The position numbers were made by a program, and so were the translations under genes. 64,000 bases of DNA from Candidatus Gottesmanbacteria bacterium (lineage in GTDB: Bacteria > Patescibacteriota > Microgenomatia > UBA10105 > UBA927). Under the pieces are notes generated by a model. It saw only the letters and a program-made list of their open reading frames with translations. It ran no database searches and was not told the DNA's origin. The DNA lies in the NCBI GenBank assembly GCA_030679255.1, contig JAUXTO010000018.1:2973-66972 (forward strand), read 5' to 3'. Shown one piece after another: positions 2,513-63,700 of this stretch; the stretch's first letter is position 1, and every line of letters begins with the position of its first letter.

Positions 2513-2553
2513 CATGAGACTAATGAGTCTCATGGGCCCCATGAGTCTCATGG
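2513..2553. repeat. Palindromic CATGAG-W-CTCATG motif cluster 2. It overlaps the stop of the four-helix-bundle gene.
   Basis: CATGAGACTAATGAGTCTCATGG at 2513-2535 and CCATGAGTCTCATGG at 2539-2553. Confidence 0.6.
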
Positions 2554-3095
2554 AGCGCTTTGCGGCGAGCAAGGAATAGTTTCTCCCGAAATCCTCCCTC
2601 GCGGACAAAACGGTTTTTGATGCCTGTTAAAAATCGATCCATGAGAAAGCCCTGTTTTATGCAAAGCGTCATCATGAGGTTGGCGAAGCTTTCCTGATCA
2701 TCAAAACGGATTTCATGCCACGCCTGAGCGTCATGAGACACATGAGTCTCATGAATATCGATGAGAATTTTTCGAAGTCGAAACACCCGCGGATCATTTT
2801 TATCCCATACGGGGAACCCTTTTTTGAAAAGAAAATCTTTATAGTCTTCGGTCAGCTCCCCATAGCTTGCCCGCGAGACGCCCGAGAGCTTAAGATTGCT
2901 TTCAACCGAGTTTTCCAGACTCCCTTCGACGAGATTCTGTTTTCCTGAGCGGTTCGCCTGTTCCATTTGATCGAAGGTTCTCGTAGTGCGGGGGATATAG
3001 CGGGTTATGAAGATATGGTTGAGGTGGGAAATTTCCTGGGCAAGCCAGTAGACAAGGGTGTTTTCTATCCCGCCAGTTTTTTGTGAGTTTTCCAT
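2520..3095 (-). CDS. Four-helix-bundle protein (23S rRNA intervening-sequence protein family, PF05635-like).
   Basis: Reverse-strand ORF, 2520..3134 in the track. The likely start is ATG at 3095 (MENSQKTGG...), 4 nt after the tRNA-Ala(CGC) 3' end. The sequence matches the family pattern: LVYWLAQEI...F..RYIP, then QNLVEGS, then SGVSRASYGELTEDY (compare NIAEG...ARGSL.EL.TQ). The C-terminus (IHETHVSHD...LHETHGAHETH) is translated read-through of the palindromic motif, where CATGAGACTCAT reads as HETH. Confidence 0.55.
   Translation of the reverse strand: MENSQKTGGIENTLVYWLAQEISHLNHIFITRYIPRTTRTFDQMEQANRSGKQNLVEGSLENSVESNLKLSGVSRASYGELTEDYKDFLFKKGFPVWDKNDPRVFRLRKILIDIHETHVSHDAQAWHEIRFDDQESFANLMMTLCIKQGFLMDRFLTGIKNRFVREGGFREKLFLARRKALHETHGAHETH
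2732..2767. repeat. Palindromic motif cluster 3. It lies inside the four-helix-bundle CDS.
   Basis: CATGAGACACATGAGTCTCATGAATATCGATGAGAAT. A further half-site, CCATGAGAAAG, sits at ~2638. Confidence 0.5.
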
Positions 3096-3098
3096 GGG

Positions 3099-3171
3099 TG
3101 GACCCGATCGGATTCGAACCGACCACCCCTGCAATGCGAATGCAGTGCTCTACCAAATGAGCTACGGGCCC
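3099..3171 (-). tRNA. tRNA-Ala (anticodon CGC).
   Basis: Reverse complement of 3099-3171 reads GGGCCCGTAGCTCATTTGGTAGAGCACTGCATTCGCATTGCAGGGGTGGTCGGTTCGAATCCGATCGGGTCCA. This is a canonical cloverleaf with G3:U70, D-arm GCTC/GAGC, anticodon loop TTCGCAT, and T-loop TTCGAAT. Confidence 0.85.
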
Positions 3172-3463: not shown

Positions 3464-3762
3464 ACTCACTCTAGTTTTCTCTCTTTTTTGCTCCTTGTCA
3501 AGGGGGCAAACTCGTCCTTGACACACCCTTTTCGCGCGCGTCATTATGTATATATAATAACTTTTTTCGCTAGCGGTTTTCGTTGGGTTTGAAACAGTTG
3601 GTGAAAAAAGATTGCATGCCCGGATCACTACCCAGGAATTTTTTTCATTTCAAGCATACAAATAAAAAATTAAAATCCCACGCATTTCTCCGTTTACCCA
3701 TCGTTGATGCATTTCTTTCTCTATTGATATCGTTATTGTCTCCCATGAGACACAGGAGACCC
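3464..3762. promoter_or_regulatory. Divergent intergenic control region between the small reverse-strand ORF and the giant gene. It contains an AT-rich tract and TTGACA-like boxes.
   Basis: Direct repeat tcCTTGTCAagg ... CCTTGACAcacc at 3491-3529. AT-rich stretch at 3540-3700. AGGAGA at 3754-3759 is a possible Shine-Dalgarno for ATG 3763 or 3772. Confidence 0.3.
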
Positions 3763-3780
3763 ATGAGTCGCATGAGTCCA
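3743..3780. repeat. Palindromic motif cluster 5, overlapping the giant-gene start codons.
   Basis: CATGAGACACAGGAGACCCATGAGTCGCATGAGTCC. In-frame ATGs at 3745, 3763 and 3772 all lie inside motif copies. Confidence 0.5.
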
Positions 3781-33700: not shown

Positions 33701-36700
33701 CCCAGGGGAAGCAGAGCGAGGAGCGGGCGAAGAATCCGCCGCAACCGATTGACGCGGTCATGGCGATCCCTCCCATCGCGGCACCGGTAGTCCCGCCTCC
33801 CGCACCGGGAACAGCACCCGGCCAATCGCCGCTTGGAATTCCGGCCCAACTCCCCGAGTGCGTCACCGGAGATACAAAGCTCAAGAGGAGAAAGAAAGGA
33901 AGAAAGCAAGAGAGGAAGATAGCCGGAGCCGGATCAGATTTAGATGGTGTGGAGAAAAAACAAACCGCCTCTTTCGAAGCGGCTGTTGGTGAAGGAGATA
34001 CAATATCTCCGTCGTCCGATAAGCTTATATATGATACATCGCTTATGCCGGTTATGTCAAGTGGGCGGAAGGCGGGAGACTTGCACTCCATCCCGTCTTA
34101 CGACGGGACCATTCGCTTATCAGACGACGCCCCCTCGTCGGAGGTTCACCTTCCACCTGACGCCAGTATATCACAGGATGAATATGAGGACGTTGCCATC
34201 AAAGACATCCAGGCGGGCGACGAGATCCTGTCTCTGAACGAAGCCACCGGCCAGTTTGTCCCCCAGATTGTGGAAAAACTCATGGATAAGGGCATGCAAC
34301 AAACCTATCTTCTTGTGACATCATACGGAAAGCATATTCGCACGACAGCACAACACCCCTACCTTGTGCGCGATCCGCGGTTTGTAGAGCCGCCCATATT
34401 CCCTGAGCGGATTTTTGGCAGCTTTGAAGTGGATTTATCCGGTCATATTGAGGACACCTCTGTCGATACGTTTGTATCCGTTGCGAACCAATCATTTGCG
34501 CAGACCATACTGATCGAACAAACAGTCAAAAGACTACTCCAAAAGTTATTTAAGAAAAAAAATCACCTGAAGTATCTCGGACCACGCGTATTGGCAGCAG
34601 CGATTATGAGAATTATTCGACAAAGCAACATCGCCGTGACACATTTGACCGTTGATTTGAAATTCCCCGGATATCTGGAGGAAATTTCGCAGATACTACA
34701 TAGATTTGATCCGGACATGATGGTGTATTTCGGATCTATCGGCAAGCATTCACCAGCTCACTATGCCGCTCATGGCGCATTTATTGGGAAACAGCCGATT
34801 ATCGGCTTTTTACAGAAAGAGGATATTTTCGGTAACAAAAAAGACCGCGATTCCCGAAAGAATCTAGGCGCTTTGCAAAGTAAGGACGATCATATCCTAG
34901 GGAAATCGCCTGACCAAGTAAAGAGCGCACGCGGTCAATTTGTCTCCCCAGTATATACGAGAAGTCTCGATCTGTCAAACGGATCTTCGTGGAGAAAAGT
35001 AAAGGATATCAGAGTCAATCTGGAGGTAGCAACGATCGATGGTTGGGAGCGGATCGTGAGCATTGTGCCGATAGCCCGTGAGCATGTATACGATGTTCAA
35101 ATTTCCGGCACCCATAACTTCGTCGGCAACGGCATCGTCGCGCACAACACCTCAATAGAATCGATGCGGGTCCGGGAGTTCCATGCCGATACGGACGGGC
35201 AGGGGACTCAGCACTCAAAGGTTATCGAAGATATGCTCGTCCATATTTTGAATAATCCTGATACGGCAGGAGCGTTCCAGCTCATCCGGTCTGTCCGGTT
35301 GTTTGCAGCCCAGCACGGTATGACGGCGCTTGCAAGCATGGAGGAAACGCGTATCCGCGAGCTCCTCCCCACGATCTTTCGGTTTTTTGCACAGCACCAT
35401 GAAATGGGCAACTTCATGGGGATTGTGGATGGCAAACTCGCCGTATTCAAGCTTCAACATCACCCGGGCGCGGAAGCGCGGGCAAAAGCGATTTGGGATT
35501 TGATGACGGGCAACGATGCGTCTGCCTATCGCGCGAAAGCTCAGGAGTACGGAGCAGGTACTCTTAATGACGACGAGTGGAATCTCATCCGGGGATTAGT
35601 TGGGCAGATGATTATCGAGACGAACGTCGATCAAAACACAGACGGGTATGGGCTTGTCAGCCGCGTCTTTAATTTCAACATCAACGGGCCAGAGATGAAG
35701 GAGGCAGAGGGGTTTCAAAATACCCTTGTTAATTTGTATTCTCTATCCCAACGCCAAGTCCTCGTAACCAATCCGTTTACGAAGAAATTTGACCTCCCCC
35801 AACCATGGCTCCTGAAACGGATGTACGATATTGCCCTCCATTATACCAATTCATCAAATAAATCTTACGAAGAAAGTATCCGTGCGACTGTCGAAGAGGG
35901 ATGGACCCAGACAACTGAAGAAATTGATGCGCTCACCGGTCTTGCCAAGCTCTTTCATCGGGCCCGAAACGGTCTGGGAAACCTTGCTGCCCTCGCCGAT
36001 CAGGAAGTGGGTGCGTACCTACCGGATGGCGCCTATACCAACCCCCGGACCAATATTTCCTGGGCTCTCATGGCCGAGTACATCCGCCGCGACGTGCCCG
36101 TACCGGGCTACAACCCGGCCAAACCGGAAGAGTATTTGGGTTTCATCGACACGATGGCCAATATCGAATTTGGCAAACTCTTCCACAATCTCATGCAGGA
36201 TGCAGGAGGGGAGTTAGCGTGGACCAACCGGACCCCCGCCGCCCAGCTGGCCTTCGCCCGCGCCCGCCAGGCGGAGCTTAAATCCATGGTCGCCGAAGCG
36301 ATGAAACAACAAAGATTGACCGAATTACAACTCGCAGATCTGCCCGGATTTTTAGAGAAACTGCCCGGGAAGTATCCGGACGGCGCTAGACAGAAATTTG
36401 AACAGGCACTTGAAGAGGCGATGAATAGAGTGAATGACCTGCGGTCGGCAGAACAAAAAAATACTGCGAAGACTATCCAGACATTCACTGCTCCTTTTGA
36501 AAAATTGAGTGCTGATCCGGAAGTGTCGGCATATATCATTGGTCTGGATCCGGACTATCTCGCAAGTCTTGTTGCAGAAAAGGGGGCAGTGGATCGTAGG
36601 GACGCGGAAGTGATGGTCGCTGCATTGGAGCTGCTCGCCCAACGGGATCCACCAAAGAACGCACCGCAAGATCCGGTTGTAATGGCCAAAAGAGCGCTCA

Positions 36701-39700
36701 CTACGGTCAGGGGAGTGCAAAATGCGAGAAATCAAGCGATTTGGGCGTGGGACGCGGTTGCGACCCTTACCGAGCTTGTGAAAGAAACGCAACCACCACT
36801 CCAATTTTGGATCTACCTTGCCGATCTGCAGGACATTTTCGACGCTGCGGTAAAAACAGACCAAGAATTACTCCAAGAGACCAAAGTAGCAACCCGTGAA
36901 GTTTCAGAGAGTCTTGCCGATTTAGTTACGATCGATAACGCACGGGACATGACGAAAGCAGTCAGTCAGATCAGCGCAAATCGGGACGCATTGCTTGTGG
37001 CAAATGCAAAATCAACCGGGCTTATTCTTTTGGCTATCGCCCGCGGCGATGAAAAATTCACGATACTCGGGATGATTCATACGGCGCTTACCAAAGGGGT
37101 GAATAAGGCGGTTGTCACCCGATTAGGAATCACGCCGGAGACCCTTGCGGCATACGAAGATGCCGTGTATGTATCCGTATCAGAAACATTAGATGCCTAT
37201 GTTGTTGATAAAACAGATACCCGTCTCGCCCGCCTGAATCCGGCGGCAGGCAAGAAAGTATTTGATAAACCGGCATACGATAAATTAGTCACAAAAGCCC
37301 AAGCGGGAGCAAATATTCAGGAGGCATTAGCCGTAGATGTTTTTCCAAATAATCCTGATCTTCGACCGGCCCTTCTTCGGAGGCCAGAACTTCTTGATGG
37401 AATGGCAAAAGCCATTCTTGCTACAGCAGAGAAGCGAACGGATGACGCACTGAAAGAGCAGAAAAAAGCCGATGAAGATCGCCTCGCCCGCGCGGAAAAA
37501 ATAAAGTTAGCAAATGCCCAAAAGAAGGCGGAGAAAGAAGAAGCCAAACGTCGGAAAGAGCAATTAACGAGGGATCAGAAAGTGGAGCAAGAGCGCCTCG
37601 AGTTGGAACGGATAGCCCGTGAAAAAGCTGCTGAGGAGACGCGGCTTCGCGATGAAGCAGAAGCCCGTCGTAGGGCTGATGAAGATGAGCAGAGGCGGGC
37701 GCAAAAGCAAAGGGACGCAGACGCCCAGCGGCTTGCCCAGCAGGAGCAAACCCGACTTAAAGGATTTATCCAAGCGAGTAAGGCCCGCCGCGCGGTACCG
37801 TTTGCTCCACCGAGCCAGGATCAGATTCGTGACGTCGTCACTCGGTCCTTCGAATTAGGAGTCCTTCCGGCTTTAGCAGCGCGTGATGCGGTCATAGAAA
37901 CTGCACTTCAATTTGGTGAAAAGGAACTGGCTATGCGCATGGGCGTGAACTTTGAGACGTTCCGATTTTTGGCGGAAAAGTATGGACAGCGGGTCATGAG
38001 ACAGTATGCGGAGCAGGGACTGCCGGAGATCGGTCGGGCGATCAATTCCGGCAAAGCAGAAGCGATCAAAGCTGCGCTTGATCAAAACAAGATCACACCA
38101 TTCTATTACACCGATCAAGCAGGCTTACTTGCCCTGTTTAAGGCAAACGGTGAACCGGCACCATCCCCAGAGGTGGTTACCCGCATGATGCAGGGAGACC
38201 TGGGGACGGCGACGAAAAAAGGCATCTACCTTAAAGCTGATATGTTAAGTGGTGAAAACGTAACTGTTCTGTATCAGCGGATCATCGCCGAGGAAGTCAC
38301 GCACTTCATACGGTTGAACGATCCCACTGTCACGATCACCCAAAAGAACGTGGGACGCGAAGAGCTCATCGCCGCCGCCGTCTCCGTGGCGATGCTCAAA
38401 ACCCCGCCGCAGGAGGCCTACCAGCACGCCCAGACGACCACCATCCTGACCCATTTGGTATGGACGACAACGACCCCGGAGCCGGAGAAAGAAAAAGATG
38501 CCGGAGCGGCGAAAAAACCGGCATCCAACCTCCGTCGGCCACTTTCGAAAGAACAATTGGAAGTAAAATTGAAACAACTTGGTTTTGCAGATGGAACGAA
38601 CGATTTAATTAGTAAGCATCAGGCACTTGAGCTATTCCAGAAAAGCGATGTATTCAGAGGATGGACAGTTCGTGACGTCGATGATCACGGTGCCGCATCA
38701 CTCGTCATCTTTGCCAATACACCCGAAGGCGAACCGAGAGCAGTGAAAGTTGCCCTGAGTCCGAATGATGAGGAATCGGCCAAAATATCATTATTTGTAA
38801 ATTCCGGTACCCCTACAGTATATAGTTCTGGGCGTATTCAAAGAGATACGAGTGCCTCTTATTCATATATGGTCATGGAGGAGCTTCCGATTAGTGAGGA
38901 ATACAAACCCGGATCGTATATTTCATACGATAACCTGATCGTATCAGTAGAATATGACAAATTATCTCCAAAAGAAAAACTATCCTTTGCACTTGGTTTT
39001 GTTAAGAAGTATTGGGGTATCATGTTAGCTGCTTCGATCAACCCGCACGTATTCAATGCGGATTTTGCTAAAGGTGACAGTATGTTCTTTTATATTGACG
39101 AACAGGGGAAGGAACCAAGAGATGGGGCGTTCAAGCTTATTGATTATGGAGGAGTAAAAAGTGCAGACCAGAATTTTCTAGATCAGCGTCGAGGTTTGCA
39201 CAAACCCATGCTAGGCAATGCAGACGGACAGTTGAGAGAAATTTTTCCCATTCTGGCTCGTATTGATCCTATGTATTTTATAGGGAGCGACGCGCATATG
39301 TTCACAACAAAATCTCCAATCGGCGAGGAGGTCATACCGTTAGAGAGTCTTCCGCCGGAAATTCAAAAGTTCATCATGTTTATCGCCAGATTTAACGAGG
39401 TTACGCATCCTACATTTGGAAAAATGCTCGGCGATGGACTGTTGCATGGCGTGAATTTTGCTGAGGGTGAGAATAATTGGGACATAGGAGGATTTATGCG
39501 GGAAGTTATACTTCCTGCAGAAAAGTCATTGGCAACTATGGGTGATCTTAAAGGAGAAAAAAATGATGCAGCATATAAAGTAAAGCGAGATGCTCTATTT
39601 CAATCCTTTGCTGACGCTAAAAAGAATTTTTCACCACGTGGTACTTCCTATGAAAAAGCCCAAACAGATGCCGATATTGGTGCGATCGTGGATGTTGTAC

Positions 39701-42700
39701 TGAATGGAAAGTATCATCCTGACGAGCGTCTGCGTGAAGCGCTTGAGAAGCCGGGAGTACGTGAAACGGTTGCAGGATTCCTTCCGGTCCTCCGCATAGT
39801 CCGGCCCGGACTTCGGGATATTATCGATGCACCTAATCAGAGAGAAACAGTGGGCGATACCATCACGACATTTGTTGCCAAGCGTTTGAAGGTTACGGAT
39901 TCGGCACAAGTGGAAGCGATTCGTGTAGCAGTAACCGCTGCGATTCCTCCAGCAATCGCTACTGGATTTGATATCGGCACGCGACTGTCTGGTGATGACG
40001 GAAAGCGAATTGGTACTATTTTGTCTACTGTATGGAAAGATTCCGGGCAGAACGCGTCAAATTTCCTCACCCGTCTCCCCGTCTTTGTTCGGGCCTTGAC
40101 TATTCCTGACCTTTTGGTCGCCCGTAGCTTTATCTCTGACGTGCAAAAAGCCCTCGAAGAACTGGAAAAAGTGACTTCCGGGATGAACGCGACGGGCATT
40201 GACTCTCCAGACGCCTTCCTTACTGCTTCTTCGTACACCGGCACCGACACCCGCTATGCCGGAAAAAACAATCAACAAATCATCGAAGCAATCCTGACTG
40301 CTCATGAAATTTCGACCAACACTGACGGGGTCACCCCACCCGAATACACCTCCCTCATCCAGACTTACGGCACCGTCATCTTCAATATCTTGCAGTCCAG
40401 ACCAATACAGCCCGCCTCAACTCAGCAAAAAATTCAGGCAGTGCTTGATCTGCTATCCACTGCACCAAGCGCGTTGATTGTAAAGGAGGAAGCACCGAAG
40501 GATCAATTACCATCAGTCGTGGGAAATCAAGTCAAACTTCAGGAAAAGGTCATTGAAATAATTCAGGGGAAGAATGTGCGTTTGGCAGAGTTATTGCAAC
40601 AACCAGGATTGGCATTTAGTTTTATGATGTTTAATAATATTCGACTTGAATTACGTCTTGACGCTTCATGGATAGATACACCAGAGAAATATCTCGATGT
40701 TATTTTACGCTACTTGGTGGAGAAAGTGAGTAAAGACATTTACACGCATAAGTTTGAACATGAAAAAAATGAAATAGAAGGATTTAGCAGTCAATATAAT
40801 CAGGAGTATATAAAATATTTGAAATCAGTTCTGCTTGAATATGGATTCATCGAAAAACACATAGATGCATATATAGAAGGATATAAGGCTGATGCAAATG
40901 AGTTATCGAAGATTTACCAAAGTGGTAATACTGGGGGGTTAGAAAAAATATATAGGGTTTTAAATAGTTATTTTAGAGATGATTTTAGAGTTGATGATGC
41001 AAAGAATAAAGTCTATATTGACTTGATTGGCGGGTATCGATCAAATCTGTTAAAAACGATCAACAATGCACTCGCATCGGGTCGAGCTGGTTTACCTACC
41101 GCAGAGAGCATTCAGGCCCAATCGCAGAATCTTGAGAAACAGCGTCGTGAGAATACTGCAGGTGAAACGTTGAAACAACGCGTTTCAGACACCGTTACAC
41201 CCGGAGTATTTTTGGCATATGGATTGGCCGTTCCCGCGTGGCTCGATACTCCTCTTTCCGCGCTTACTCCTCAGGAAATCGGAAATGTTACGAAAGCATT
41301 GGAAGCGCTCAAGGTTCTCGTTGCAGGTGATAATGGGGTGAAGGCCGCCCAAACACTTTCACCGGTCACCATCGCCGACATTACCTCATCCCCCAAACAA
41401 GTAGTAGGTAGCCGCACGTTCCGCATGACCTCACAGGGAGTATTTGAAGAGGTAGCCAACACAGGATTTATGTTTTTTCCCAAGGGAACGGTGATTGCGA
41501 CCGGCACAGAAAACGTAGTGATGATCATCGGAGATCGTGTTGTCGATATCATCGTTGTGCAACGTGACTATCGCGTTTCAACAGATACATATATCGCATT
41601 TCCCAACTATAGAGATGATGAAGGGGCAAGAAATATTTATACATATGCGCTCCGGGGTGGCCAGCATATCGTCACCGGACCGCTTGCCGTCGGCACACTT
41701 ATTTCGCTTACCCAGCCAGTAAAGAAGGCAGCGATCGTTACGGCGAACGATATTGATTTGTATGATGTCGTTACCGTGGCGACGGGAAACACGATACTCA
41801 CACGCGGAGTAAATCCAACCCGCGTCTATATCCATAACGGGTCTTTTCTGCGGGAAATTACGACTCTTGAGGATATTGTATTGCCCGATAGCACGACGCT
41901 TCGCGTCGATCCGCGCCATTTTTCAGTAGGAGCCGTTATCTACAAGGAACGAGTTACCATTGGCGCAGTCGAAGTATTACGTACCACGGATGGACACATT
42001 GCTTTGTCGGTTGGAGCGGACGCGGGAGCTTGGTATTTCCAGTTTGGATCAGCAGGCCAAATGCCCTTGACCGTGATTGTGCCAAGTACATTGCAGAAAG
42101 TTAGTCTCATTGCCGAGCCATGGGATAGGACAAAGAATCAGGATTTTGATATTAATCATACTGCGTCTTCCTTGGCCGACGCGGTAACACCGAGCTATGA
42201 ATATGCGGGTGAACTTTTGGACGGATCGACGCTTCAGTACCGGGTAAAAGGAGATGGTACGAGAGAATGGATATCGGTCGATGCGGCGAACAAGCGTACG
42301 CCGGTTCCGATCGGTACCCTTCTGCAGAATTCATCTGGTGCGCCGCTACTCGTAGAATCCACCGGCACCGTTGTTGTCACGCAATTAGGCGATTTTCCGG
42401 TGTATGTCTCCAAGGATGGAAGACGCGTATGGAGGGAATCTGGTGCGCTCCTCACGCCTGCTTCTTCACCGCTGTTACTCGCTAATGGTCAAATGATATG
42501 GTTTGATGGGCAGGGGAGTATCCGTGTATTTGATGAGTATCTGAAGGTGTCGTTTGCAGGTGCGGGGGATATGCCTCTCCTGTTGGGCAAGGAAGCCACG
42601 ACCGGCACGCTCTATTGGGTAGGAGAGGCAGACGCGAGAGAGCAGCCCACCGGATCTGAATTTTCGGTTAATGATGTTCGGTTTCGGGTATCGCCCGGTC

Positions 42701-45700
42701 AAACGGTAGCGAGCCAACTTGTTGTGGTAGGGCTTACCGACACCAATGGGTTGTGGAATACCCTTCGATCGGATATGGATTTCCTCATCGGGTTTTATCA
42801 AAGCGTGGATTGGGCGGCGGTGGCAGAGGGGCAAGATGGATTGAGGAATAAAGACCAATTAATCGTTGATGTGAGGGAAAGAGCAAAAAAAGCCGTGAGA
42901 AGATTGCTCGTAGGAGTCGCAACGGACGTGACCGTCTTCGGGCCGGCATTTGATGCGTATATAGAAGAGACGATTATCCCGGCAGTGCGCACAAATATCC
43001 GGGCGATTGGTCAGCCGACTGTAGTGAAGGGAGCGCTTGAGATTGAACAAAATTTTGCCGTTTGGCGGGCGACCCATGAGATGGTCGATGCGTTTGTGCG
43101 TAGTCCGGCTCTGGCAAAAAAGAAGGGAGTGGTTGCCGTAGCCGGCCGTATCGCTGGGCTGCGTGCCGGGACTCAAGGCTCTGACACGGTTCCGATCGTG
43201 CGTGATGCACTTTGGACTGCCCTTCAAAATCAGGAATTGACGCTGCCGGTTGCCTACGGAAAGAAAAAGATCATCACGCTGCGATCTGCGATAGAAAGTA
43301 TGTACCTAAATGGGACGAGAGCGGGCTTTGCAGCCGAAAAAGCTCGGCTCATCGATGCGGCATGGATGGCGATTGATAACGCAGGCGCTTGGGAAGAATT
43401 TTTGGAGAGGGTGGGAGGGGTAAGTGTTACCATGCGTTCATGGTTTGGAGGATTAACGTATAGCGCGCAGGAAACCGCACTCTATGAACGTCTTGAAGTT
43501 GCCCTTCGGGATATTGGCACAGACAAAGACGCGAAAGCCGCAGCAGAAGCGGAGGCGAAACTTCGTAGTGATACGATCCAAGCACAATCGTTTGCCCAAG
43601 TTGCTGCGGATGGAATCATCGGTGAAGCATCGGGTTTGTATGGGATTGATATGTTTCGGGATGAAGTGACACGCTTGATCCGATCTCAAATCAGCACTAT
43701 GGCAGACGGCATCCGCAAGCAAAACAAAGAGCGTACAGAGGCCGTTGAGCGCATTGGAATGCGTCTTGGTAAAGCATTGTTCGATCAAGTGGCTAGCGTG
43801 AACATTGTCGGGATGCTTGAATTGGATCTAACGGCTACTCCAGCCAGAATCGAATCTAACATGTTACAGGGAAATTATACGGTGGAAGCGCAAGATTCGA
43901 TGTCTATCTGGAGAAACTATCTACCTGATCCATTGATGACGCTCTTTGATGATGCTATGAAGGATACTACATTGACTGCACTTACTCCGATTGAGCAGCA
44001 ATCCTATATAGATGACGTTCGCCGTGTAGCGGCACAAGAAGCACTGCGATTGTGGACTGCGCGGGAGGATGATGGTGGAATTTTATCCGTGATGACTCCA
44101 GAGGAGCGGCAGGCAGTGGTTGGGCTTGGGGTTAAAGCAATTGGATCAGAAAGAAGAATGGATTGGCTCATGGATGGAAGCGGGATATCATTACTTCCAG
44201 AGACGCGCAAGGCTCTCATACAGAAAGTATTTACTGATACGGATAAATTTATTGAAAACCAGCGGTTTACTGCGGCGCTTGCAGATGTTCAGCGCTTTTT
44301 TCCATCTCTTTCTTTAATATATGAAACGAGAAATAGATTTAATGCAAAATTATTTGAAGGTAATCTGGCATGGAGTTTAGCGGAGGCTGATACATTACAC
44401 GCGTTATTTGATGACGGCAAAGCATGGGAACAGACGAAAGCCGCATTACAGAAAACAGGAAGCTTGCGGGATCATATTTATCATAATTTTATCCTTCTTC
44501 ATTCAATTCCCCGGTATGCAGATCGGCTTCCGGATTTGTCGGTTCGGTTTTTTCGAGACGGATTGCCAAGCAGGATGCTTGAAGAGATATTTACACCGCA
44601 CAGTCTTTTTTGGAAATCTGAGTCCGTACAGTCCGCTATGAACTCGATCTTTTCAAAAAAACAAACCGATCAGGAATATATAGCGCAAATCTATATATTT
44701 CTCACGCGTATGTTTGGGAAGTTGATCGATACGAGTAATCTTAGTGGCACATATCACATATCCAATGATCAGTATCTCAGCTTTGTCCAAGTCGTGTCAG
44801 AGATTGTGTATGAAACGCATAAGGATTGGGTTGTCGTAGCGGATAATCCACCTAAGGTAGTCTCAAAAGAAGGGAAGACACTATCAATACTTGATATGTT
44901 TGCTAAACAAGTTGGTGTCCGTCAAGAAATAGCGGGTGTATACCAAAGAGTAAGGAGCGAATTTTTGAGCAGTGAATCATCAATGAGGTCCGTTGCCGCA
45001 GCCGCACTCAACATAACGACGGATGCTTCAAACAATAGTGCTAATGTTATTACCGCCAACCGAAGGCTCATGAAAGTAATTCATCCTGATACCACTGGTG
45101 TAACAGATGAATATATCAGCACAATTATGTCGTATATCGAACAGGTTAAAAAATACCTTGAAATCATCAACGATACTGTTATGTCGAAAGACAATATTGA
45201 TGCAGCATCATTTGTTTTTGCTCTCATTACCGATAAATTCATCTATAAGGAATCTATTTATGGGTTTAGTACTGGTGAGCAAATGAAACCCAGAAAAACT
45301 ACATATACTTTTCGTGAAAAGGAGTATTTGCTATATTCTCGTAAAATGCTGGGAAATGAGTTACAAGAATTTATACAATTTGTAATTAAGGACACAGCAT
45401 TAGATGAGCGTGCTATGGTTGTCAACCAAGCTGTTGCAACGGGTTCATATCAAGATGTACGGGATCAGATGGAGCAAGTATTTTTGAAATATGTCAGAAG
45501 TGCCGATGTGAACATGAGGGAGTGGGATAGCGATTGGTGGGAGTTGCAGATGTGGAATACCTATCGCCAAATCAGGCTCGCCCAAGGTTTAGAGCCGAGT
45601 GTGAAAAACGATGGAAGTGATTCTCCTTCGCGTCCGAGTGGTCCTTTATTCCTTCCTGCGCCCAGTATTCAAGATCTTGTGACACACATCGTTGTGCGGA

Positions 45701-51700: not shown

Positions 51701-54700
51701 AGCGCGGCGCGTTGCCCAGAGCGGTCTGGTGGGAAGGGGTGAAATTCTGGCTCGGAACTGCCGGAGAATTTCGGAAAAATTGGGAAATATTTACGAGACA
51801 ACGATCGCGGCAACGGGTTGATGATTCTGTCACTATCGCTCCAACCGAGGTGGCGAAGGATGCCCAGGAAGCGGGGATCCCCACGGCCACCAAAAAATCC
51901 CCTTTCAGGGATTACTTGGTAAGCATAACAAGTTCGCTTAATGGCCGGCTTGATAACCTTGTAAAGAGGATACCATTTTATAGCATTCTTGTCAAGATGT
52001 TGGGTGTGGACTCGCCGGGATTCGCACCCGGTAGGCCTGGGTTATCAAGCCGGCCTAGCGAACGTGCCGAGCCCACACCAAATTCAAGTATATCACGGGC
52101 ACTTCAGGCCCTTTCCGCCTGGTGGGGGAGGGTGAGGACAAATGCAGCTGCTCTCACTCTTCCATTGGCAAACGTTCTGGGAGATGCGGCAACAGATTTA
52201 GAAAAAGACTGTCGCATCGGCCTCCTTCCCACTCCCCCAGCCTTCGCGCAAGCCCGCCTGCCGGCAGGGCAAGGCTACGGACCGACCCCGGCCGTGCTTG
52301 GGGATAGTAAAAATGCGCAAGATTTACTTCTTGGAGCGTTTGACTGGAGACTGTCCTCATTTCCCGGAAGTTCGGCTGGGAGTTCGATGAGATCGATCCG
52401 TACGGATAACGGCGTAGGCAAACAAAACAATGAGCATCATGAGCAGCGTATAGGCGATAGCCGTATTCGTCAAGAAGTCCTGGATTTGGATAGTTCCTAT
52501 CATAATGATTTACTCCTTTCAGATACCCAAAGGCCTATCAACAATCCCACTATACCAAAAGAAATATTTTTCGTCAACAATGTGGCAGAGGCGGTAAATG
52601 ATGCAGTGGTCAAGCTGGGAGCGATCAGTACGACGCCAAACCAGCCAGAGGAGAGGTTAAATGATACGGCCGCCAGTCCCTCCATGAGTGTTCTGCGAGA
52701 GCACAGTTTCATTGCTCCCTACAGTACCACCGGCAGCGATCTGTTGTCAAATTTCTCTCTCATGCCCCGAGCCTATGCGGTAAGTCCCGAGCGCAGTCGA
52801 GGGGTAGCCGACGGTCAAGTATTGGCAGTCCGGACGGGCGGGTGTTCGCAATTGACCTTGGCCGCAGCAAAGGGACTTCTCGCCGCGAGTGATTATACTC
52901 GTAATGATCTTCCCCAGCCGCCGATCGTTGTTCTTTGGAACGCAACACAGCGATCATTCAATCCGGCCTTGCAAGATATTCGTACCCGTTGGCAGCAGAT
53001 GATGAGCCCGGGTCAGCAAATTGTGGGCGAGAGTAGATTATATCTCCAAGACAAACTCTCTCCCCGACCCGATCCCGTCGGCCTCGGCGGGGGAGGAGGG
53101 CCAACGAGTTCATCGATGGATAAACCGAAAGCATCCGGAGATGAACAGTTCGGATTCAGCGTTGAAATTCCGGGTGATTCTTCCCGGGTCACTCTCGGCA
53201 GAGACGGTGATCGAGACATATCCATCGGTGATCCGTCAGTTTCACGAAATCACGGAGAGATTATTGTGGACCATGGGACATACTATTATGAAGATCGTGG
53301 CTTCACGAATGGTTCATTTGTCAATGACGTATCAGTGTTGACAATGGAGGATATGAGGATTGAGTTAAAGTCAGGAGACACCATCCAATTGGGAAGTGCG
53401 CAATTTGTATTTACCCCGGGGAAGAACGGATTTACCCTTCTGCGTGCTCCATCTGAGTTTTCCACATACGGGAAGTCGCTCAATGTGAGGCTCTGGCTCT
53501 CATCTGCTAGGTCTGATGATCGGTTATCCGGGGAGGAGCTTCAGAGGCTTATCAATCAAGTATCCATCATAGAACAAGCTGCCCGGATAGCACGGCGGAT
53601 TCAATTGCAGGCTGTTTCGTACCCGTATTTGTCCCATATCTTCTATCGGGGTGACGCGGACAGGTGGTATTACCAAGGTGCACAAGGCGTACGCGTGTAT
53701 CTTGACGCTGACCAGTCCGTGCAATTTGAAGCATTACGTACGCTTTACGGAGAGCTCCTCCGTATCCATTCCTCACTTGCCCTTTCCGGAGGAGTGGACG
53801 CAGTTCCTCAGGATGGAGATGTTCCGGCAATCCAACAATTTGCCCAAACCATCCAGCTATCGACAAACCGGATCGGTACTCTTGCTTTTATTTCTCAGGC
53901 AATTACTAAAAATAAAGAGAGTCAGGAGCCTATGGTCCGGCAGTATGGGGAGATGTTGATCAGGATACGAAACCTTTGGGAGGCTGCATTGATCTATCCG
54001 GAAAATTTTGATCAGATACTGCGAAGTGAATTTCAGGAGACGCCGGAAGTGGCAGAGGAAATTCTCGATTATATGCATGGAAAATTGAACAATACTCCGG
54101 TTGGAGAGGATTTTGACCGGATGTTTACCAATGAATCACAATCCTATGGGTATGGGGTCGTGCCTCAGGGCGTGATCCGTGGGTTGCTGCTTGCCGAGCA
54201 GGGAATGATCCGCCAATTTCTTCCGGATACCTATCAGGATTATTACCGGCAGAGCCTGCAGGAGCTTAATGCACAGATGCGCGCAACAGGTATGACGGAA
54301 TTTGAAGGCAGCCGGTATGTCAAAAGGGGGGAAGACGCGTGGTACTTTAATCTTAATCTCCGTCATAGGACATACGGAGCTCATGGAAATTCAGATGGGT
54401 TTGTCTCCGTCATCGAGCCAATAGCATATACCAAGGCTTTGAGTACGGATGCCTACGCCAGGCTCATCGCCCAAAACAAGACACATGAGATGCTGCATCA
54501 ATTGCTTGAGGGTATGGTTAGCATCAACCGCTCATCGTATGGACCTGACACGACGGAGGAAGCGTTTGTGGAGCTTTATGCCCGCTTGTTATCCGGAGTA
54601 GACCCTTCCAAATTTACCGGATATTATGATTTACCGACGCATCGTTTGTATCAGTTGGTACAGGAAGCCGCACAAGTCAAGCACATGACTCCCGCCAGAG

Positions 54701-57700: not shown

Positions 57701-60700
57701 CTGGTAAATCTGAAAGGGATTATTTTGATGCCCCTGCAGTGAAGCCATATATAAATACAGTGGTAAATAATATGGCAATTGGGGATATAACCCAAGTCGA
57801 CCCACTCACATTTCGTTTGCTTGCAGCGTTGACCACCGATATGGTTTTCCTGCGACAACAAACCGCCAGCGTTCCATTTACCACACTTGGATTACCTGCA
57901 AAACCTCCCGTCGCATTTGTTCCGATCGGACAGCCACCTGCAGATTCTCAGAAAGCGCCAGCGTTGACGCCTAATCAGCCGGTGTCTACGCAGGTATCTC
58001 TCGGGTCATTTACACCTACTGCTGATCAATTATTGAGTACAATTCCTATTCCTCCGGAGTTGCCTACGCTTGTGGCACAAGCAAGTTCATTATTGGATCA
58101 AGCACAAGAAGACCTCAACCAGGGGAAGAGAGATGTGTTTGAACAACATGTAGCGCAAGCCCATGGACAAATCGCAGACCTCATGAAGCACTGGCCGACT
58201 GACGACGACGTGCAACGAGTCATAGCCCAACACAACTTATTGACGGCTCAGATACGTGGTAAAGGTATTCAGATGATCGTATCCACAAATGAATCAAAAT
58301 CAAATCAGATTATCACTGCATTTCGGTGGGACGGGAAAAAAGTCGAGATTTATCTTTCCAACGAACAAGGAGACGAACAATTTCCTGCTTTAGGAATCCA
58401 AGAAACCTCCACTGCCGATACCGCTCAGGAATATGATCAACGAATTACTGAATATCTGTCAAATCGGGGAAAACAGGCATTTTACGCGAGAAAAATATCG
58501 AGGGTATTAGATGGCATTGAGGATATCGTAAAACCACAAAATGCTCATACCCCTAAGGACGTAGGATCCGCTGGCCTCGGCGGGGGAGGAGAGGGAGAAA
58601 ATAAATTACTCAATTTGCTCAATTCCGGAAACGTCAGGATGAAATTCCCTTTTTCGTATCATTTCAGTACTGGTTTTTCACTGGCGAGCAGGATGTATGG
58701 TATCAATCCTACTGATGGAAGTGACGTCAATAAGGCAAAACTTAAACAACTCTTCGGATCTACGAGAAATATCATGGATCCAGTATCACTTAATATGGTG
58801 AATGATGTGGTTGCGGTTCGGGTTTCGGTTATTGATGGTTCATATGTGATGATTGAACAAAATTATGCGGAGTTATTTGCGATGGCCGTTTATTATGGAC
58901 TGACGCCTGAAGAAATTTATGTCTATGATCGCGGGACAGGGAATTACATGAGCTTGAATGATCTTTTATCAGTTGTTCCGCAAAGAACAGAAACAAAAAG
59001 CCGCTATGATGTTTTATTCACCGACATGGAGAAAGATGAAAAGACCAGCCGTGGGTACGCTGATTATTCAGATATTTTTCCTGACCAAAACCCACAAGGT
59101 CTATCCCTTGAGACAGTTCTTATGGATCTTCTAGAAAAGAAAGCACTGTCTGGTGACCACACGCTTACGATTCTCGACCAGGGGGCCGGGGTAGGAAATT
59201 TTGGCCGTGTCCTCGCTGCTTTGTTTGAAAACCCAAATAGGAGTGATAAGGAAATGAAGCAATATTTCGGTAATAAGAAATTTCTTGCCGTATGGAGACC
59301 TGAGCGCATGGAAGAAGCTCGGCGTATTGCCCGGCGAGCGAGGGACCTTGGCATCGCATTGCGGTACGTGGGTATTACGGATGCCAATCGTACGCAAAAT
59401 CTTTTTGATAGAAACTGGACGATTGGGGCGCCTGGAAAGAGTGTCTTTGCGGAAAATATTGCGTATACCTATACGCCGAGACAACGGCTTAAACAGGTGC
59501 TCGATACTTTGGGTATTACTTCTATAGATTTTGCATTTAGCGTTGCATTTGAATCGTATTTAGATGAAACAACGCACACAGCCCTTACTCAGGATATTAT
59601 TGGAGCATTGGGGCAGGATGGCATCTACGTTGGAGAGACGGCAAAGCTGCAATTGATGCTTCAAAATTTTGAGCGGAAAGGAATTGTTACGTTGCTTGAT
59701 GCAGCCCAACAGGTTTCTTACGGGGTAACATATAGCAGTTTAAGGAGTATATTTTCCGTCAGACGCACTAAACAAAGTGATCGTAAACAATTCACGACAG
59801 CCGGAGAACGGGTGGTACAAGCGGAACTTCGGTCAAATCCTCAAATTAATGCAGATCAGCTTGCTCAGCACGCAATTGATGCGCTGGCAGAAGCTAAAGC
59901 TCATTCGGATTTATTGCAATCCGTTTCTCCCGCCGGCGGGGGAGGAGAGAGACCGATGGATACGTCCAATTTAGCCAGTAGAAAAATAGTCGAAGCCGAG
60001 GCGGTCAGACTTATTGAAACATCCAATAAAAATGCAGCAAGTACGCTCATGGCCCAGTATGAGCGGTTGGTTGCGGGACTCGTAAACGTACTGGAACAAA
60101 ATCCTAATCTTTCGTTAGATTCATACCTTGATATGGTGGCGACCAACGATAACGTACGGGAGCTTCTGGGGATCAGCCCGACTGGAGATCGGAGTCCTCC
60201 AACTCCTTTTCAATCGTCCCTTCGTACTTCTCTCGCCTCCGACCTCCCGTCCCTCCATACCCAGGCCGCACAGCCAAATGCCACCAAAAAACCCGCTTTC
60301 GCGGGTTTTGGCGATCTCGCCAGGTTGGTAAAAAAGCTGGACCTAAGAAGTAATGTACTTATATCATTTTATGAACGTTTTGTCACTCCCAGCTCCCAAC
60401 CTGGCAGGCCCACTCCATTGGTGAGTATACCACAGCAAATTCACGCTGTTTTATCAGATTTTGTGGCTAAATTTCTGCCTAAAAAGAATGTTTTGCAACC
60501 TGTCCCCGGCGGCACCGGCGGCGGGGGAGACGGAGGAGCGGCAGTGATGCCCGGGGAGTCCGGATTGACGCCTCTTGAATTGAAAGCCAAACAACTGACC
60601 GAACCGGCAGCAGCGGCCATTGGAGAAGCGCTCGTGAAGCCTCTTGAGAAAAAAGTTAATGATCTTTGCAATGATCGTACGGGATTTATACCGGGTGGAC

Positions 60701-63700
60701 AGCAGAAATTGGCTGACGGGTCAGGATTTGCTTTCCCTCTTGGGGGGAGAGGTGCGAAAAATCAGGAGAGCAAACAGCAACACAGCAATAATGAGGAGCA
60801 TGTACGCGGACGCAGCGTCACCCAAAAATTTACTGAATTGGTCGATAGTCATAGCTTTTTACCCCTTTCGATGAACCATACGGCAACGAATAACGATACT
60901 ATACCAAACGGGAGATGGAGAAACAAGAGCGACCGAAATTTTTCTGATGATGTCGCTATAAATCCCGGACTGATGACTAACATGCCAATCCATCCGGATG
61001 ATAGATTGATAAATAATGCTCCAAACGCTTCTGCAAATGATTTTCGGGATATGGCAAACATCACCCCCGACTCTACCACTCAGCCAACTGCATTGTCAAC
61101 CAATTTTTCCTTTACGCCAAAAGTCTATGCAGACAACGGCTTTGCTCCATCCGGCGGTCCCAGCGCCCGCTGTGCTGTAGCCCGGGCGGCCGCAGAAGTT
61201 GCCCGTGGAGCAGCTGATTTTGTCAAAAACACGAGTTGGCAGATGCCCAACCGCGTATTGACTCAATGGTTTCTCGGGAGTATTCGGAGAGTGGGAGATC
61301 AAGCATATGATATATTTCGCAATGCATCCCAACGGTATGATATTGATTACAACACGTTACTCGGTAAAGGTGGAATAGCGAAAGTTTATAAAGGATTTGA
61401 CCGTTGGAGAAATGTTCCGGTCGCAATAAAAGTATTACCCCGCGGTTCGGATGATCAAGATCTAGGACGTGAAGCACGAATATTAGCTCAATTCTCTGAT
61501 TATAATGTACTCCAAGTATATGATCTGCATGCATTTCCTGATGGCACTGTTGGATTGGTGACGGAATTAGCGGATGAACATAAAACATTAGGTTCGATCA
61601 TTCAACCTGGATACGCTATTAGTTCAGACACCATGGCTGATGTGCTTGCACAGATCGGGTCTGCGATCGATCACATTCATGCTTTTGGAGTTTTTCATCG
61701 TGATATTAAACCGAAGAACATCCTGATCCAGGATCTCGGCAACGGTCTCATAAGGCCGATGTTAAGCGATTTGGGTTCAGCGGTTCTTTCCAGGCCATTA
61801 TCGACGGGACTAGTTGACGATTCAGGGTATGGAAACAGCGCACAGACCTTGATATATATGGCCCCTGAATTAGTGTTAGCGCAGGATCAACCTGCGACTA
61901 TACAAACAGATATATATTCCTACGCAGTCACGTTGTATGAAATATTAGGTGGTTTGCATCCATATTTTCCCGATCCGGATGCAGAATATCCAGTGCTTTA
62001 TTTAAGGTTTAGTTCAATTGATAGTAGTAAATACATTCCATTATCATCGATACGATGGGCAAATACCCAAATTATCGATCCGGAAGTAGTGAAAACAGTG
62101 AATCAATTGCTTCAAACGGCCTTATCAGTCGATCCTGCGCTGCGTCCGAAGTCTGCAAGCGAGCTGACCAAAAATATTATTGAAGCCATTACCAGTCATT
62201 CATACGTGTCCAAGTATCATCCAATCACCAACAGACAATTAAAAAATGTCATTCCGGATGATTCCGTCGCTCCCTCCATCGATCTCGCCAAGGCCAAGGC
62301 TGGGGGAGGGGTGAACGATACGGTGGGTACGATAACCCACGATCCTTCTCGACCTCAATGGCTCGAAGCGTTACAAAAGAGAATAACCTCATTGTTTAAT
62401 CGCATGGCGATCCAATTTGGATGGTATCGCGGTCCGGAAGCACCAATTGTCCGATTTGCACGGGAGTATGGAGATTTATTGGATCAATTATTAACTGATA
62501 CAGATGTTCGAGAGGCGATTGTGCATGATCAGCAACCATACAAAGCCATGCGGCTGGTAAATAGAAAGATACAAGATATCGTAGGGTCTAGATATGCAGA
62601 CGCTGACAGACTCAAGATTGTCGAATTTATTATAAATAAATTTGACTTTATCTGGCATGTCGGTAGGGCAACGGAGGATATACAAAGAGGTCAATATGAA
62701 TCATACCGCAAGGGTAGCCGGGGACAAAGAAAATACACTTTGAATCCTAGATATTTGTCGGTATATCAAACGGAAATCATTGAAGGATCTGTACGTCCAA
62801 AAACAGTTGAATTACCTACGGCACAAATAGAGGAGTTTGTGCAAAGGGGTCGCCAAGTCGCAGGCGCAATGGTCATACCAGCAGGGAAAATCAATCATGT
62901 CGGTGAACTTGTGGCTGGCTTAGCAGCAACTCTTGAGGATGCTGATACGCCGATAGGACGAGATCAGCGGTTGTTGATTCATCTATTGACCTTTGCGGAT
63001 CAAACAAACCCGGTTAGTGGTGGTAGCGATTTTAAAAAGGCGCTACGTACATTTTCCGAAAGCCAAATGAATCCAGAATATATTCCTGAATTGTTTTCTA
63101 GACTTCTCGCGATAAATTTTGCACGATATATGCTCTATGAGCCGTTTTGGGGTCCTGTATTGGATGTTTACAATACCAAGGTGCTCCCCATTATTCATGC
63201 TCAGGGCGCTGAGTATCAGCGGTTTCATGCGGTAACGCCGGAAAGCATTATCTGGACAGAAGGAGAGATGCCGATTGGCTGCGTTGGGCAGTGTCTCGTG
63301 CCGACGGCCATGAAAGATTTATACAGATCATTCATGGTGATTAACACAATTGGGGAAACTGGTAACTCTGTGTTTGATGTTCGTACGACTTTGAATGGAA
63401 AAAATATTACTGGAGTGCGTGACGGTTCTGTTGCATCAAAACCGAGAAATGCAGCTTTGGCGACGTTAAAGCATGAAGCTATCCATGCGCAGAAGATTGA
63501 TGAAATTGGGAGTGCAAATATCCCAACAGATACACAACTTATTGGTACCCTTGAAGGGTTGACTGAGACAGAACAGTTACGATTGACTGACATTGTTTTT
63601 GCTACTTCCCCTGATCTTTATGGTCAGTTTGAACGACCTGCCGCATATCCAGGCGAACGAATAATAAATAGAGTATTTTTTGATCTTTTAGAAGTGCCGA

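Follow-up and report, generated by a model that had tools for sequence, protein, structure and literature searches.

The window analysed here, a 64,000-nucleotide stretch of a Candidatus Gottesmanbacteria bacterium genome (assembly GCA_030679255.1, contig JAUXTO010000018.1, positions 2,973 to 66,972 of the forward strand), is mostly filled by one stop-free frame of 20,142 codons that continues past the window end. This giant open reading frame (ORF) is regarded as a real gene because Pfam domains lie in its frame, including kinase, FHA, LCP and GNAT domains and two inteins. Three repeated modules of its product (A1, A2 and A3) each contain, on the opposite strand and wholly inside the giant gene, an intact pair of small genes, ORF1 and ORF2, behind a promoter-like site. 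These pairs are probable embedded antisense overlapping genes, and they belong to a large family whose members also occur as standalone genes. Locations are given in Table 1.

The first-pass annotation of this DNA had placed three paralogous units at 52186-52900, 56461-57390 and 60650-61215, and comparison of the giant protein with itself in chunks bears this out. BLASTP pairs aa 16202-16454 with aa 17625-17952 (28% identity, E 3e-8; 56% and E 7e-17 in the C-terminal part) and aa 16283-16402 with aa 19067-19186 (31% identity, E 3e-9), residue i of the protein beginning at nucleotide 3574+3(i-1). A hidden Markov model (HMM) built from the three copies and scanned over the giant protein finds these three sites alone (independent E-values of 1e-94 to 1e-142; next best 0.05), and they are also the only places in it where the motifs DLEK.C, TIP, PNQP..RL, STT, [ST]NFS and P.[AV]YA co-occur. 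The shared motifs had been described for all three copies, but copy 3 is weaker at its N end (DLCND) and lacks GQVLA.RTGGCS. Each module is followed by a different block, as had been noted: an FHA domain after A1, a Ser/Thr protein kinase domain after A3, and after A2 a stretch that matches no Pfam family. The suggestion that the copies drive recombination and length variation is not supported at the DNA level, where the best ungapped run is 126 nt at 74% identity, motif blocks reach 62-79%, and the fraction of differing sites is 0.60-0.70 at third codon positions and 0.44-0.53 at positions 1 and 2. With DNA similarity this low and third positions nearly saturated, the modules are ancient paralogues kept at the coding level, and a recent DNA repeat or recombination substrate is ruled out.

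Read on the reverse strand, the core of each module is a cassette of about 400 nt made up of the promoter-like site, ORF1 and ORF2. The three window cassettes have one promoter geometry, TTGACA-18-TA[CG][TA]GT-8 nt-start, and the landmarks of the sense repeat can be assigned to cassette parts one by one. First, sense TIPNG is the mirror of FGIV in the second transmembrane (TM) helix of ORF1. Second, sense PNQPxxRL is the mirror of NLxxGWFG in its first TM helix. Third, [YD]STT mirrors the -10 box and LS[NT]F mirrors the TTGACA -35 box with its A/T tract, the A1 site reading 'YSTT...LLSNF' in the sense protein. The whole sense core of about 120 codons thus amounts to ORF1, ORF2 and promoter read backwards. 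Antisense ORFs had been listed at 52500..52712, 56772..56999 and 60849..61079 as artefacts of the protein repeat; the ORFs are present there, but they are not artefacts that mirror it. The proposal that the modules are adapters likewise stands for the flanks in so far as they form a host junction motif between domain blocks, which may or may not serve in docking or processing, and falls for the central 120 or so codons, which mirror the antisense cassette. Module A2 also holds, in tandem with its cassette, a degenerate fourth one (A2b), in which ORF1 is a remnant with an internal deletion ('..FTNLS/VCEEDL' and a stop) and the ORF2-like frame is intact (MNDFRSVIDTAGVTYLLLVITFLLMYIAFFRKDSSKRPERR; ORF2 HMM 49.8 bits at 57040-57153). 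A terminator after ORF2 was seen in A2 alone and is not a general feature.

Table 1. Positions of the giant ORF, its domains, the host junction motifs and the antisense cassettes in the window
Feature	Position	Strand	Details
Giant stop-free host ORF	3574..63999	+	in-frame Pfam domains; N-terminal TM anchor
Intein 1	33859-35148	+	Cys10096...HN10525/T; Pfam/NCBIfam intein models
Intein 2	46849-47880	+	Cys14426...HN14769/T; Pfam/NCBIfam intein models
Module A1, host junction N motif	52186..52311	+	ATDLEKDCRIGLLPTPPAFAQA...PTPAVLGD
Cassette A1, ORF2	52357..52503	-	48 aa, one TM helix and basic tail; start overlaps ORF1 stop (ATGA); ORF2 HMM 54.6 bits
Cassette A1, ORF1	52500..52712	-	70 aa, two TM helices, NLSSGWFG; ATG at 52712; 70.4 bits
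Cassette A1, promoter-like site	52721..52750	-	-35 TTGACA 52745-52750, 18 nt spacer, -10 TACTGT 52721-52726, 8 nt to ATG
Module A1, host junction C motif	52762..52929	+	MPRAYAVS..ADGQVLAVRTGGCS..AKGLLAASDYTRNDLPQPP
FHA domain, downstream of A1	53188..53394 (aa 16539-16607)	+	Pfam
Module A2, host junction N motif	56461..56529	+	TDLEKGCPTGSLPTPAVLGDA
Cassette A2, ORF2	56650..56775	-	41 aa, one TM helix; ATGA overlap with ORF1; ORF2 HMM 46.0 bits
Cassette A2, ORF1	56772..56978	-	68 aa from GTG 56978, two TM helices, NLAAGWFG; 69.9 bits
Cassette A2, promoter-like site	56987..57016	-	-35 TTGACA 57011-57016, 18 nt spacer, -10 TACTGT 56987-56992, 8 nt to GTG
Cassette A2b, degenerate, tandem with A2	57031..57275	-	TTGACA-18-TAGATT site 57271..57242
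Module A2, host junction C motif	57280..57423	+	IPPAYAADGQVLAARTGGCS..AKGLHATSDSIRNILPQAPN
Module A3, host junction N motif (weak)	60649..60717	+	KKVNDLCNDRTGFIPGGQQKLADG
Cassette A3, ORF2	60721..60852	-	43 aa, one TM helix; ATGA overlap with ORF1; ORF2 HMM 42.7 bits
Cassette A3, ORF1	60849..61061	-	70 aa from ATG 61061, two TM helices, NLSSGWIG; 70.3 bits
Cassette A3, promoter-like site	61070..61099	-	-35 TTGACA 61094-61099, 18 nt spacer, TG-extended -10 TAGAGT 61070-61075, 8 nt to ATG
Module A3, host junction C motif	61108..61278	+	FTPKVYADNG..ARCAVARAAAEVARGAADFVKNTSWQMPNRVLTQWFLGS
Ser/Thr protein kinase domain (Pkinase), downstream of A3	61351..62160 (aa 19260-19529)	+	Pfam

The host junction motif has an N part, '..D.E..C.G.LP', and a C part, 'P.AYAADG..GC..helix..PQ.PN.V', and its full layout is a helix with '..C.G.LP', then 'P.AYAADG', a Gly-rich stretch, a Cys, a helix and 'PQ.PN.V', set between different domain blocks. 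Related giant proteins carry the same motif, at some sites without the core (P-numbers here denote relative proteins and L-numbers DNA loci carrying copies). P0008 has such a core-free junction with both N and C motifs ('AAAQDSGCFSYNPFVERVYAADGQGTTC') and P0010 a similar one, and the core is therefore a separable unit set in the host motif. AlphaFold gave the sense core no structure (29-sequence alignment; predicted local distance difference test score, pLDDT, 51.7); no folded domain was found for it, and its sense-only wobble sites are less conserved (70.9%) than the antisense-only ones (87.5%). The flanks do act as host protein motifs. The C motif, in the form 'P.[AV]YA[AQ]D..C', recurs as the last part of the signal peptide predicted for the 4,454-aa P0008 ('...GSLAGLSIPKVYAQDPIQC'), and giant proteins could conceivably be cleaved at their 'P.AYA/ADG…C' junctions, which would then be polyprotein processing sites. 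A signal-peptidase reading of 'P.AYA/ADG', based on the match of the P0008 N terminus 'SIPKVYAQDPIQC' to the internal junctions of that protein, was demoted to a lead because the window junctions are not preceded by a hydrophobic h-region.

With module A1 as query, a word-indexed protein search and scans of three DNA collections gave no match. An exhaustive profile search with the modules found 39 proteins of three kinds: fragments of similar giant proteins with several modules (P0001-P0010), mini-inteins with the central core alone, between splicing blocks B and F (P0024, P0025, P0026, P0027 and P0031), and short "hypothetical proteins". In five DNA copies the same antisense frame, wobble-coincident with the sense frame, stays open for about 70 codons and stops at equivalent positions, following a basic tail. 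Scanning GTDB genomes with a degenerate pattern added more copies, chiefly from metagenome-assembled genomes (MAGs) of Gottesman-, Woese-, Curtiss- and Roizmanbacteria and of other Patescibacteria, and in most of these the sense frame is short and the antisense frame is a conserved peptide of 58-76 aa. The consensus of ORF1 is '..[DE]LF[IT]NL[SA]AGWFG..LI.P..loop..L..N...G[IL]..L..basic tail'. Searched with one engine, an alignment of the antisense peptide returned 679 proteins of 58-80 aa and one of the sense core 3, and the ORF1 family is taken to number at least 679 small proteins, the named members coming from Woese-, Gottesman- and Daviesbacteria (Microgenomates, candidate phyla radiation, CPR). 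The copies L010, L015 and L023 lie on short contigs of MAGs labelled 'uncultured Gammaproteobacteria', which may reflect mis-binning of CPR sequence or a wider range of the family. None of the six window ORFs (ORF1 and ORF2 of three cassettes) is present in a 15-billion-protein collection. The 142-aa "hypothetical proteins" P0040 (L002 10001-10429) and P0034 (L005 45-473) are wrong-strand mirror calls of a standalone cassette, with ORF1, ORF2 and promoter intact on the other strand, and several other short matches to the sense-core profile look like wrong-strand calls too.

No family in Pfam, NCBIfam, PHROGs, PADLOC or the PDB sequences matches ORF1 at or above cutoff. AlphaFold predicts a two-helix hairpin for ORF1 of cassette A3 (72-sequence alignment; pLDDT 89.8, predicted template modelling score 0.72). 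Fold searches returned generic helical hairpins alone, among them ATP synthase c subunits, WXG100 proteins and a holin, and no match had an E-value of 0.9 or less. ORF2 encodes 33-48 aa, with a single TM helix and a basic tail, and was found in all window cassettes and in almost every copy whose anatomy was examined. Embedded and standalone copies alike have the start codon 17-18 codons ahead of the invariant Asn and a TTGACA-17/18-TAnnnT site ending 5-9 nt ahead of the ORF1 start. At least 9 of the 12 promoter consensus positions are matched in 14 of 24 copies, compared with 2.45% of random same-strand 50-nt windows; the putative promoter signal is one of conserved position and geometry, not of number of sites. 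The cassettes thus carry candidate transcription and translation signals of their own, with TTGACA-18-TAnnGT-8 nt-start in 3 of 3 window cassettes and an ATGA-coupled ORF2. An Rfam scan of the window and the standalone loci gave no structured RNA.

The question of which strand is constrained was approached with 94 distinct ORF1 copies, 24 of them embedded, that is, inside an opposite-strand ORF of at least 300 aa, and 70 standalone. First, ORF1 is intact in 24 of 24 embedded copies, none of which has a stop in the mirror frame; ORF2 is present in 23 and its start overlaps the ORF1 stop in 22. Standalone copies have a mean of 1.07 mirror-frame stops (41% have none), with ORF2 in 39 and the overlapping start in 29, and ORF1 is intact where the mirror frame is broken by four stops (L019), three (L038) or two (L014 and L027). 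The antisense frame is open, with its stop at a homologous place, in all DNA copies. These stop counts mark ORF1 as the invariant entity and the sense frame as open just where the host needs it. Second, that antisense frame is open in 10.4% of 68-codon windows of the giant ORF, and when synonymous codons were resampled from the giant gene's usage with the protein held fixed, both ORFs were open with P = 0.034, 0.093 and 0.061 for the individual cassettes, a product of 1.9e-4. Third, in copy pairs with identical flanking dinucleotide families, the purine/pyrimidine class of wobble sites that matter to ORF1 alone is conserved at 87.5% (489/559) in embedded and 86.7% in standalone copies, that of sites mattering to the host frame alone at 70.9% and 61.2%, and that of sites mattering to neither at 55.7% and 52.1%; in embedded copies the ORF1-only sites exceed this baseline by +0.32 (95% confidence interval 0.20-0.45, bootstrap over alignment columns). 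Finally, the Asn of PNQP is always encoded by AAC, since AAT would turn the antisense Trp codon into TGA, while Arg uses AGR codons and Leu TTR codons throughout; no family-invariant residue is missing from the three window copies. Embedded ORF1 is as constrained as standalone ORF1, and there is purifying selection on the small proteins. The host frame is constrained as well, more weakly, as dual coding predicts, and the region is dual-coding.

The copies lie in several unrelated contexts, as is expected of a mobile element: between genes (L027), at an operon end after atpD (L038), in intein linkers (L032, L033, L037) and at junctions of giant ORFs (the window, L031, L034-L036). Intergenic standalone copies in Gottesmanbacteria have a context conserved across many samples, and some standalone copies adjoin intein-containing genes. 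In the P0027 intein the foreign segment is exactly the stretch from -35 box to ORF2 stop. The host ORF of L065 has no Pfam domain, and a tblastn search of phage and plasmid collections gave no match. Each window cassette is closer to copies in other genomes (A1 to L035 and L036; A2 to L035, L036, L013 and L017; A3 to L034; A2b to L031 and L015) than to the other cassettes of the window, which makes the subtypes older than these lineages; the window copies show no sign of recent transposition, no near-identical copies and no associated transposase. P0001, which is collinear with window aa ~17660-19240, has in its counterpart of A3 a 15-aa in-frame deletion that removes the first TM helix of ORF1, and its counterpart of the decayed A2b (L031 67-249) is intact. 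In several proteins the cassette is flanked by a loose direct repeat, 'P.[AV][YF]A.D', and P0008 and P0010 have cassette-free junctions; neither an orthologous filled/empty pair nor a DNA-level repeat could be shown for the cassette ends. In Daviesbacteria contigs (L038 5001-5330; P0147) an ORF1-ORF2 pair stands at the very end of the F1Fo ATP synthase operon, where its start overlaps the atpD stop (ATGA) and no Pfam-recognisable epsilon subunit gene follows atpD; PDB fold matches to c-ring subunits are not significant (E about 2).

We consider it likely that each type A module is a host junction motif with an antisense two-gene cassette inside it, through which the giant gene reads. The cassette would be transcribed from a sigma-70-type promoter and translated; with 8 nt between the -10 box and the start codon, its mRNA would have little or no leader. 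ORF1 would give a membrane hairpin of two helices and about 70 aa, and ORF2 a single-pass peptide of about 40-48 aa with a basic tail, its translation presumably coupled to that of ORF1, as the overlap of the ORF2 ATG with the ORF1 stop (ATGA) implies. The giant gene reads through in the antisense frame that shares its wobble positions with ORF1, and in that frame the mirror of a hydrophobic ORF is polar, rich in N, Q, T, K and P, and poor in stops, a sequence the host probably tolerates as a disordered linker. Survival of the cassette inside ORFs would be explained by the fact that the mirror frame of a hydrophobic ORF acquires stops only at Tyr, His and Gln codons. The cassettes may have entered junctions and intein linkers as portable units.

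Several points weigh against this interpretation. The promoter and the leaderless start are predictions from sequence, and the number of sites that a generic promoter scanner reports is close to that for shuffled sequence. No known family was matched by the small proteins, and the fold searches were uninformative. Host-only wobble sites too are above the baseline, so the sense peptide is also constrained and part of the conservation could be host-driven; the sequence pairs of the wobble comparison are, moreover, phylogenetically non-independent. Hydrophobic ORFs tend to open their mirror frames anyway, as the fraction of standalone copies with no mirror stop illustrates. Finally, the deletions in A2b and in the P0001 counterpart of A3 spare the host frame, which means that copies can decay and that no single copy is indispensable.

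The alternative that fares best, though we think it unlikely, is that the cassettes are dead cargo, once-real genes captured by gene/intergenic fusion or as old insertions, now silent and kept open by host constraint alone. The two host-frame-sparing deletions just mentioned are visible decay of this kind, the window copies are ancient, each nearer to copies of other genomes than to each other, and expression of the cassettes is deduced from their sequence. Nevertheless, copies old enough for wobble saturation have ORF1 intact wherever it is embedded and, in the window, keep all family-invariant residues; at ORF1-only wobble sites they are constrained to the same degree as standalone genes; they still have the start codon, the ATGA coupling and the TTGACA-18-TAnnGT-8 geometry, none of which the host protein needs; and the resampling null is rejected.

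It is less probable still that the modules have a function of their own on the sense strand, as linkers with short linear motifs for adapter, docking or processing roles, and that the antisense ORFs are by-products of N/K/T-rich sequence read backwards. There is no doubt that the sense frame belongs to a real ORF of 20,142 codons, its flanks are conserved host motifs, its private wobble sites are somewhat constrained, and the complementarity of the code does turn the mirror of a polar peptide hydrophobic and often stop-free. However, standalone copies retain ORF1, ORF2 and promoter while 1-4 stops break the sense frame, and the antisense peptide has 679 relatives where the sense core has 3. 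The conservation of ORF1-only wobble sites and the joint resampling probability over the three cassettes point the same way, as do the conserved promoter position and ATGA-coupled second ORF. The sense core is predicted to be unstructured, whereas ORF1 is predicted to fold at a pLDDT of 90, and the x-x of sense PNQPxxRL varies non-conservatively among D, E, A and V but reads as S, A or T in antisense. For the core, this alternative is largely refuted.

That the modules are degenerate inteins or intein scars, with 'C.TG.LP..ADGS' standing for block A and 'TNF....A[YH]A' for blocks F and G of CVTGDT.../GTHNFVGNGIVAHN inteins, is hardly credible: the same core does lie between blocks B and F of CPR mini-inteins and the giant gene has two canonical inteins of that family, but the motif likeness is superficial and by eye only, intein models of Pfam and NCBIfam match aa ~10207-10530 and 14472-14769 and not the modules, which have no block B (TxxH), no HN terminus and none of the ~120 residues of the HINT fold, 'SNF/LS' is accounted for as the -35 box mirror, and the segment in common with inteins is exactly the cassette, from -35 box to ORF2 stop, and nothing more. 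Neither a profile-profile match between the module flanks and HINT domains nor a sign of self-cleavage at the Cys came to light.

Few antisense genes that lie wholly within bacterial ORFs are conserved and under selection, and reports of them are often contested. Here the comparative evidence comes from 94 distinct copies, and the case has an internal control because the same gene family is found both standalone and embedded. The cassettes resemble the embedded antisense overlapping genes of Escherichia coli O157:H7 (ano and others) and Pseudomonas aeruginosa (olg1/olg2) in being complete ORFs with their own promoter, antisense inside a longer gene, with both frames constrained. Published bacterial examples are single, lineage-restricted ORFs thought to have been overprinted on an existing gene (PMC5960689, PMC9927249, PMC8850804). 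The cassette, in contrast, is a pre-existing and widespread two-gene unit that also stands alone, occurs three to four times in one host gene and lies in unrelated hosts (inteins and other giant ORFs), and its overlap probably came about when an existing gene was placed within an ORF rather than through the birth of a new one. A preprint on giant genes mentions neither antisense genes nor inteins, and a limited literature search found no description of a widespread promoter-bearing gene pair that is both standalone and antisense-nested in giant ORFs and inteins.

Other dispersed or nested elements are similar in part. The Rickettsia palindromic elements, reportedly described by Ogata et al. 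in 2000 as in-frame selfish DNA in protein-coding genes, are likewise repeats found both between genes and in frame inside ORFs, where they are translated as a tolerated extra peptide. They are short non-coding palindromes, whereas the cassette, of about 400 nt, bears two protein genes with a promoter on the other strand; neither palindromic ends nor target duplications could be shown for it, the loose 'P.AYA.D' direct repeat being all that was seen, and a non-coding in-frame element of this type was dropped as an explanation when it emerged that the antisense ORFs form a large gene family. Homing-endonuclease genes in inteins are, like the cassette in P0024, P0027 and P0031, separate genetic units in the linker between the splicing lobes, but they are in frame, on the same strand and encode nucleases, whereas the cassette is on the opposite strand and encodes membrane proteins.

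As to function, our preferred guess is a pair of membrane proteins that is complete in itself. Type I toxin-antitoxin loci such as hok/mok/sok encode small hydrophobic membrane peptides whose translation is coupled to an overlapping upstream ORF, and have a complementary antisense transcript. The cassette would be comparable in its hydrophobic ORF1 and ORF2, its predicted coupled translation and the host mRNA as complementary transcript; by analogy, since the cassette mRNA would be fully complementary to the host mRNA, mutual antisense regulation is possible. It differs in that ORF1, a conserved protein of 70 aa with two TM helices, does not resemble known type I toxins and in that a dedicated small antisense RNA is absent; a search of toxin-antitoxin families with the small proteins found no sequence similarity, and Rfam gave no match. 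ORF1 is also like class II holins and pinholins (two TM helices, 65-95 aa, charged C tail) in size, predicted hairpin and short basic tail. The only hint was Holin_9 (E = 0.022 for 1 of 10 sequences, below cutoff), a viral fold search gave E >= 0.9, and membership of a holin family was rejected, with no such family at cutoff, no match by tblastn to phages and no endolysin context seen. The candidates, then, are an antisense-regulated peptide pair of the type I toxin-antitoxin kind, a pore- or holin-like pair, and a membrane-complex accessory, none of them backed by homology. With one frame of its opposite strand free of stops, the cassette would be able to sit inside genes without breaking them. 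More speculatively, and we regard it as doubtful, it may be a new kind of portable, promoter-bearing membrane-protein gene pair that colonises protein-coding genes while leaving them unbroken and so creates long-lived dual-coding segments, in which host and cassette mRNAs could control each other by antisense or by an addiction, like that of type I toxin-antitoxin systems, that guards the host segment against loss.

Two consequences follow for annotation. Repeats of giant proteins that look disordered and carry short motifs can be mere reflections of genes on the opposite strand, and gene callers systematically miss such nested genes and sometimes annotate the wrong strand, as with P0034 and P0040. 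The analysis also exposes an uncharacterised CPR family of small membrane-protein pairs, which may be linked with giant genes, with inteins and, in a single lineage, with the operon for ATP synthase.

The remaining features of the window concern the giant host gene. An ORF of more than 20,000 codons is unusual for a genome of the CPR/Microgenomates type, the type that the flanking genes and the relatives also indicate. An identical Logan contig (run SRR13727518) covers the first 10,457 codons, with the gene start called at 3763. TM segments are predicted at an N-terminal anchor (aa 76-94) and as a pair near aa 5318-5350, and the first 10,000 residues have very few recognisable domains, with one weak ResIII match. 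The two inteins have 'CVTGDT.LKRR.K' and 'GTHNFVGNGIVAHN/TS' in common, and in each about 200 aa are inserted between blocks B and F, while a further, polar insert follows the first strand; both are without the cassette, though their intein family carries it in other organisms. On the 5' side of the giant ORF are an M23/LysM peptidase gene and two tRNA-Ala genes (2432-2504, +, and 3097-3171, -). Between these, and overlapping the second, is a 204-aa ORF (2520-3134, -), which to the eye has some likeness to the '23S rRNA intervening sequence' proteins, four-helix bundles that many CPR genomes encode.

The giant protein has further internal repeats. One, at 57529-57867 and 59932-60270 (+; 37% identity, E 2e-16), lies after A2 and before A3, has the consensus 'GGGG..DTS.LASRK.V..EA.RLI..S..NAA.TL..YE' and looks like another host linker element; Gly runs of at least four occur in the giant protein only at aa 113 and within aa 16505-18982, always near these boundaries. 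Another pairs 40018-40416 with 45808-46200 (+; aa 12149-12281 and 14079-14209, 43% identity, E 1e-26), the second copy lying directly upstream of the GNAT domain. The longest open runs of the wobble-coincident antisense frame in the giant ORF, 196 and 149 codons within 46017-47224 (-), correspond to the listed ORFs 46635..47183 and 46017..46442; they lie beneath a Pro/Ala/Gly-rich segment and the start of intein 2 and are probably compositional.

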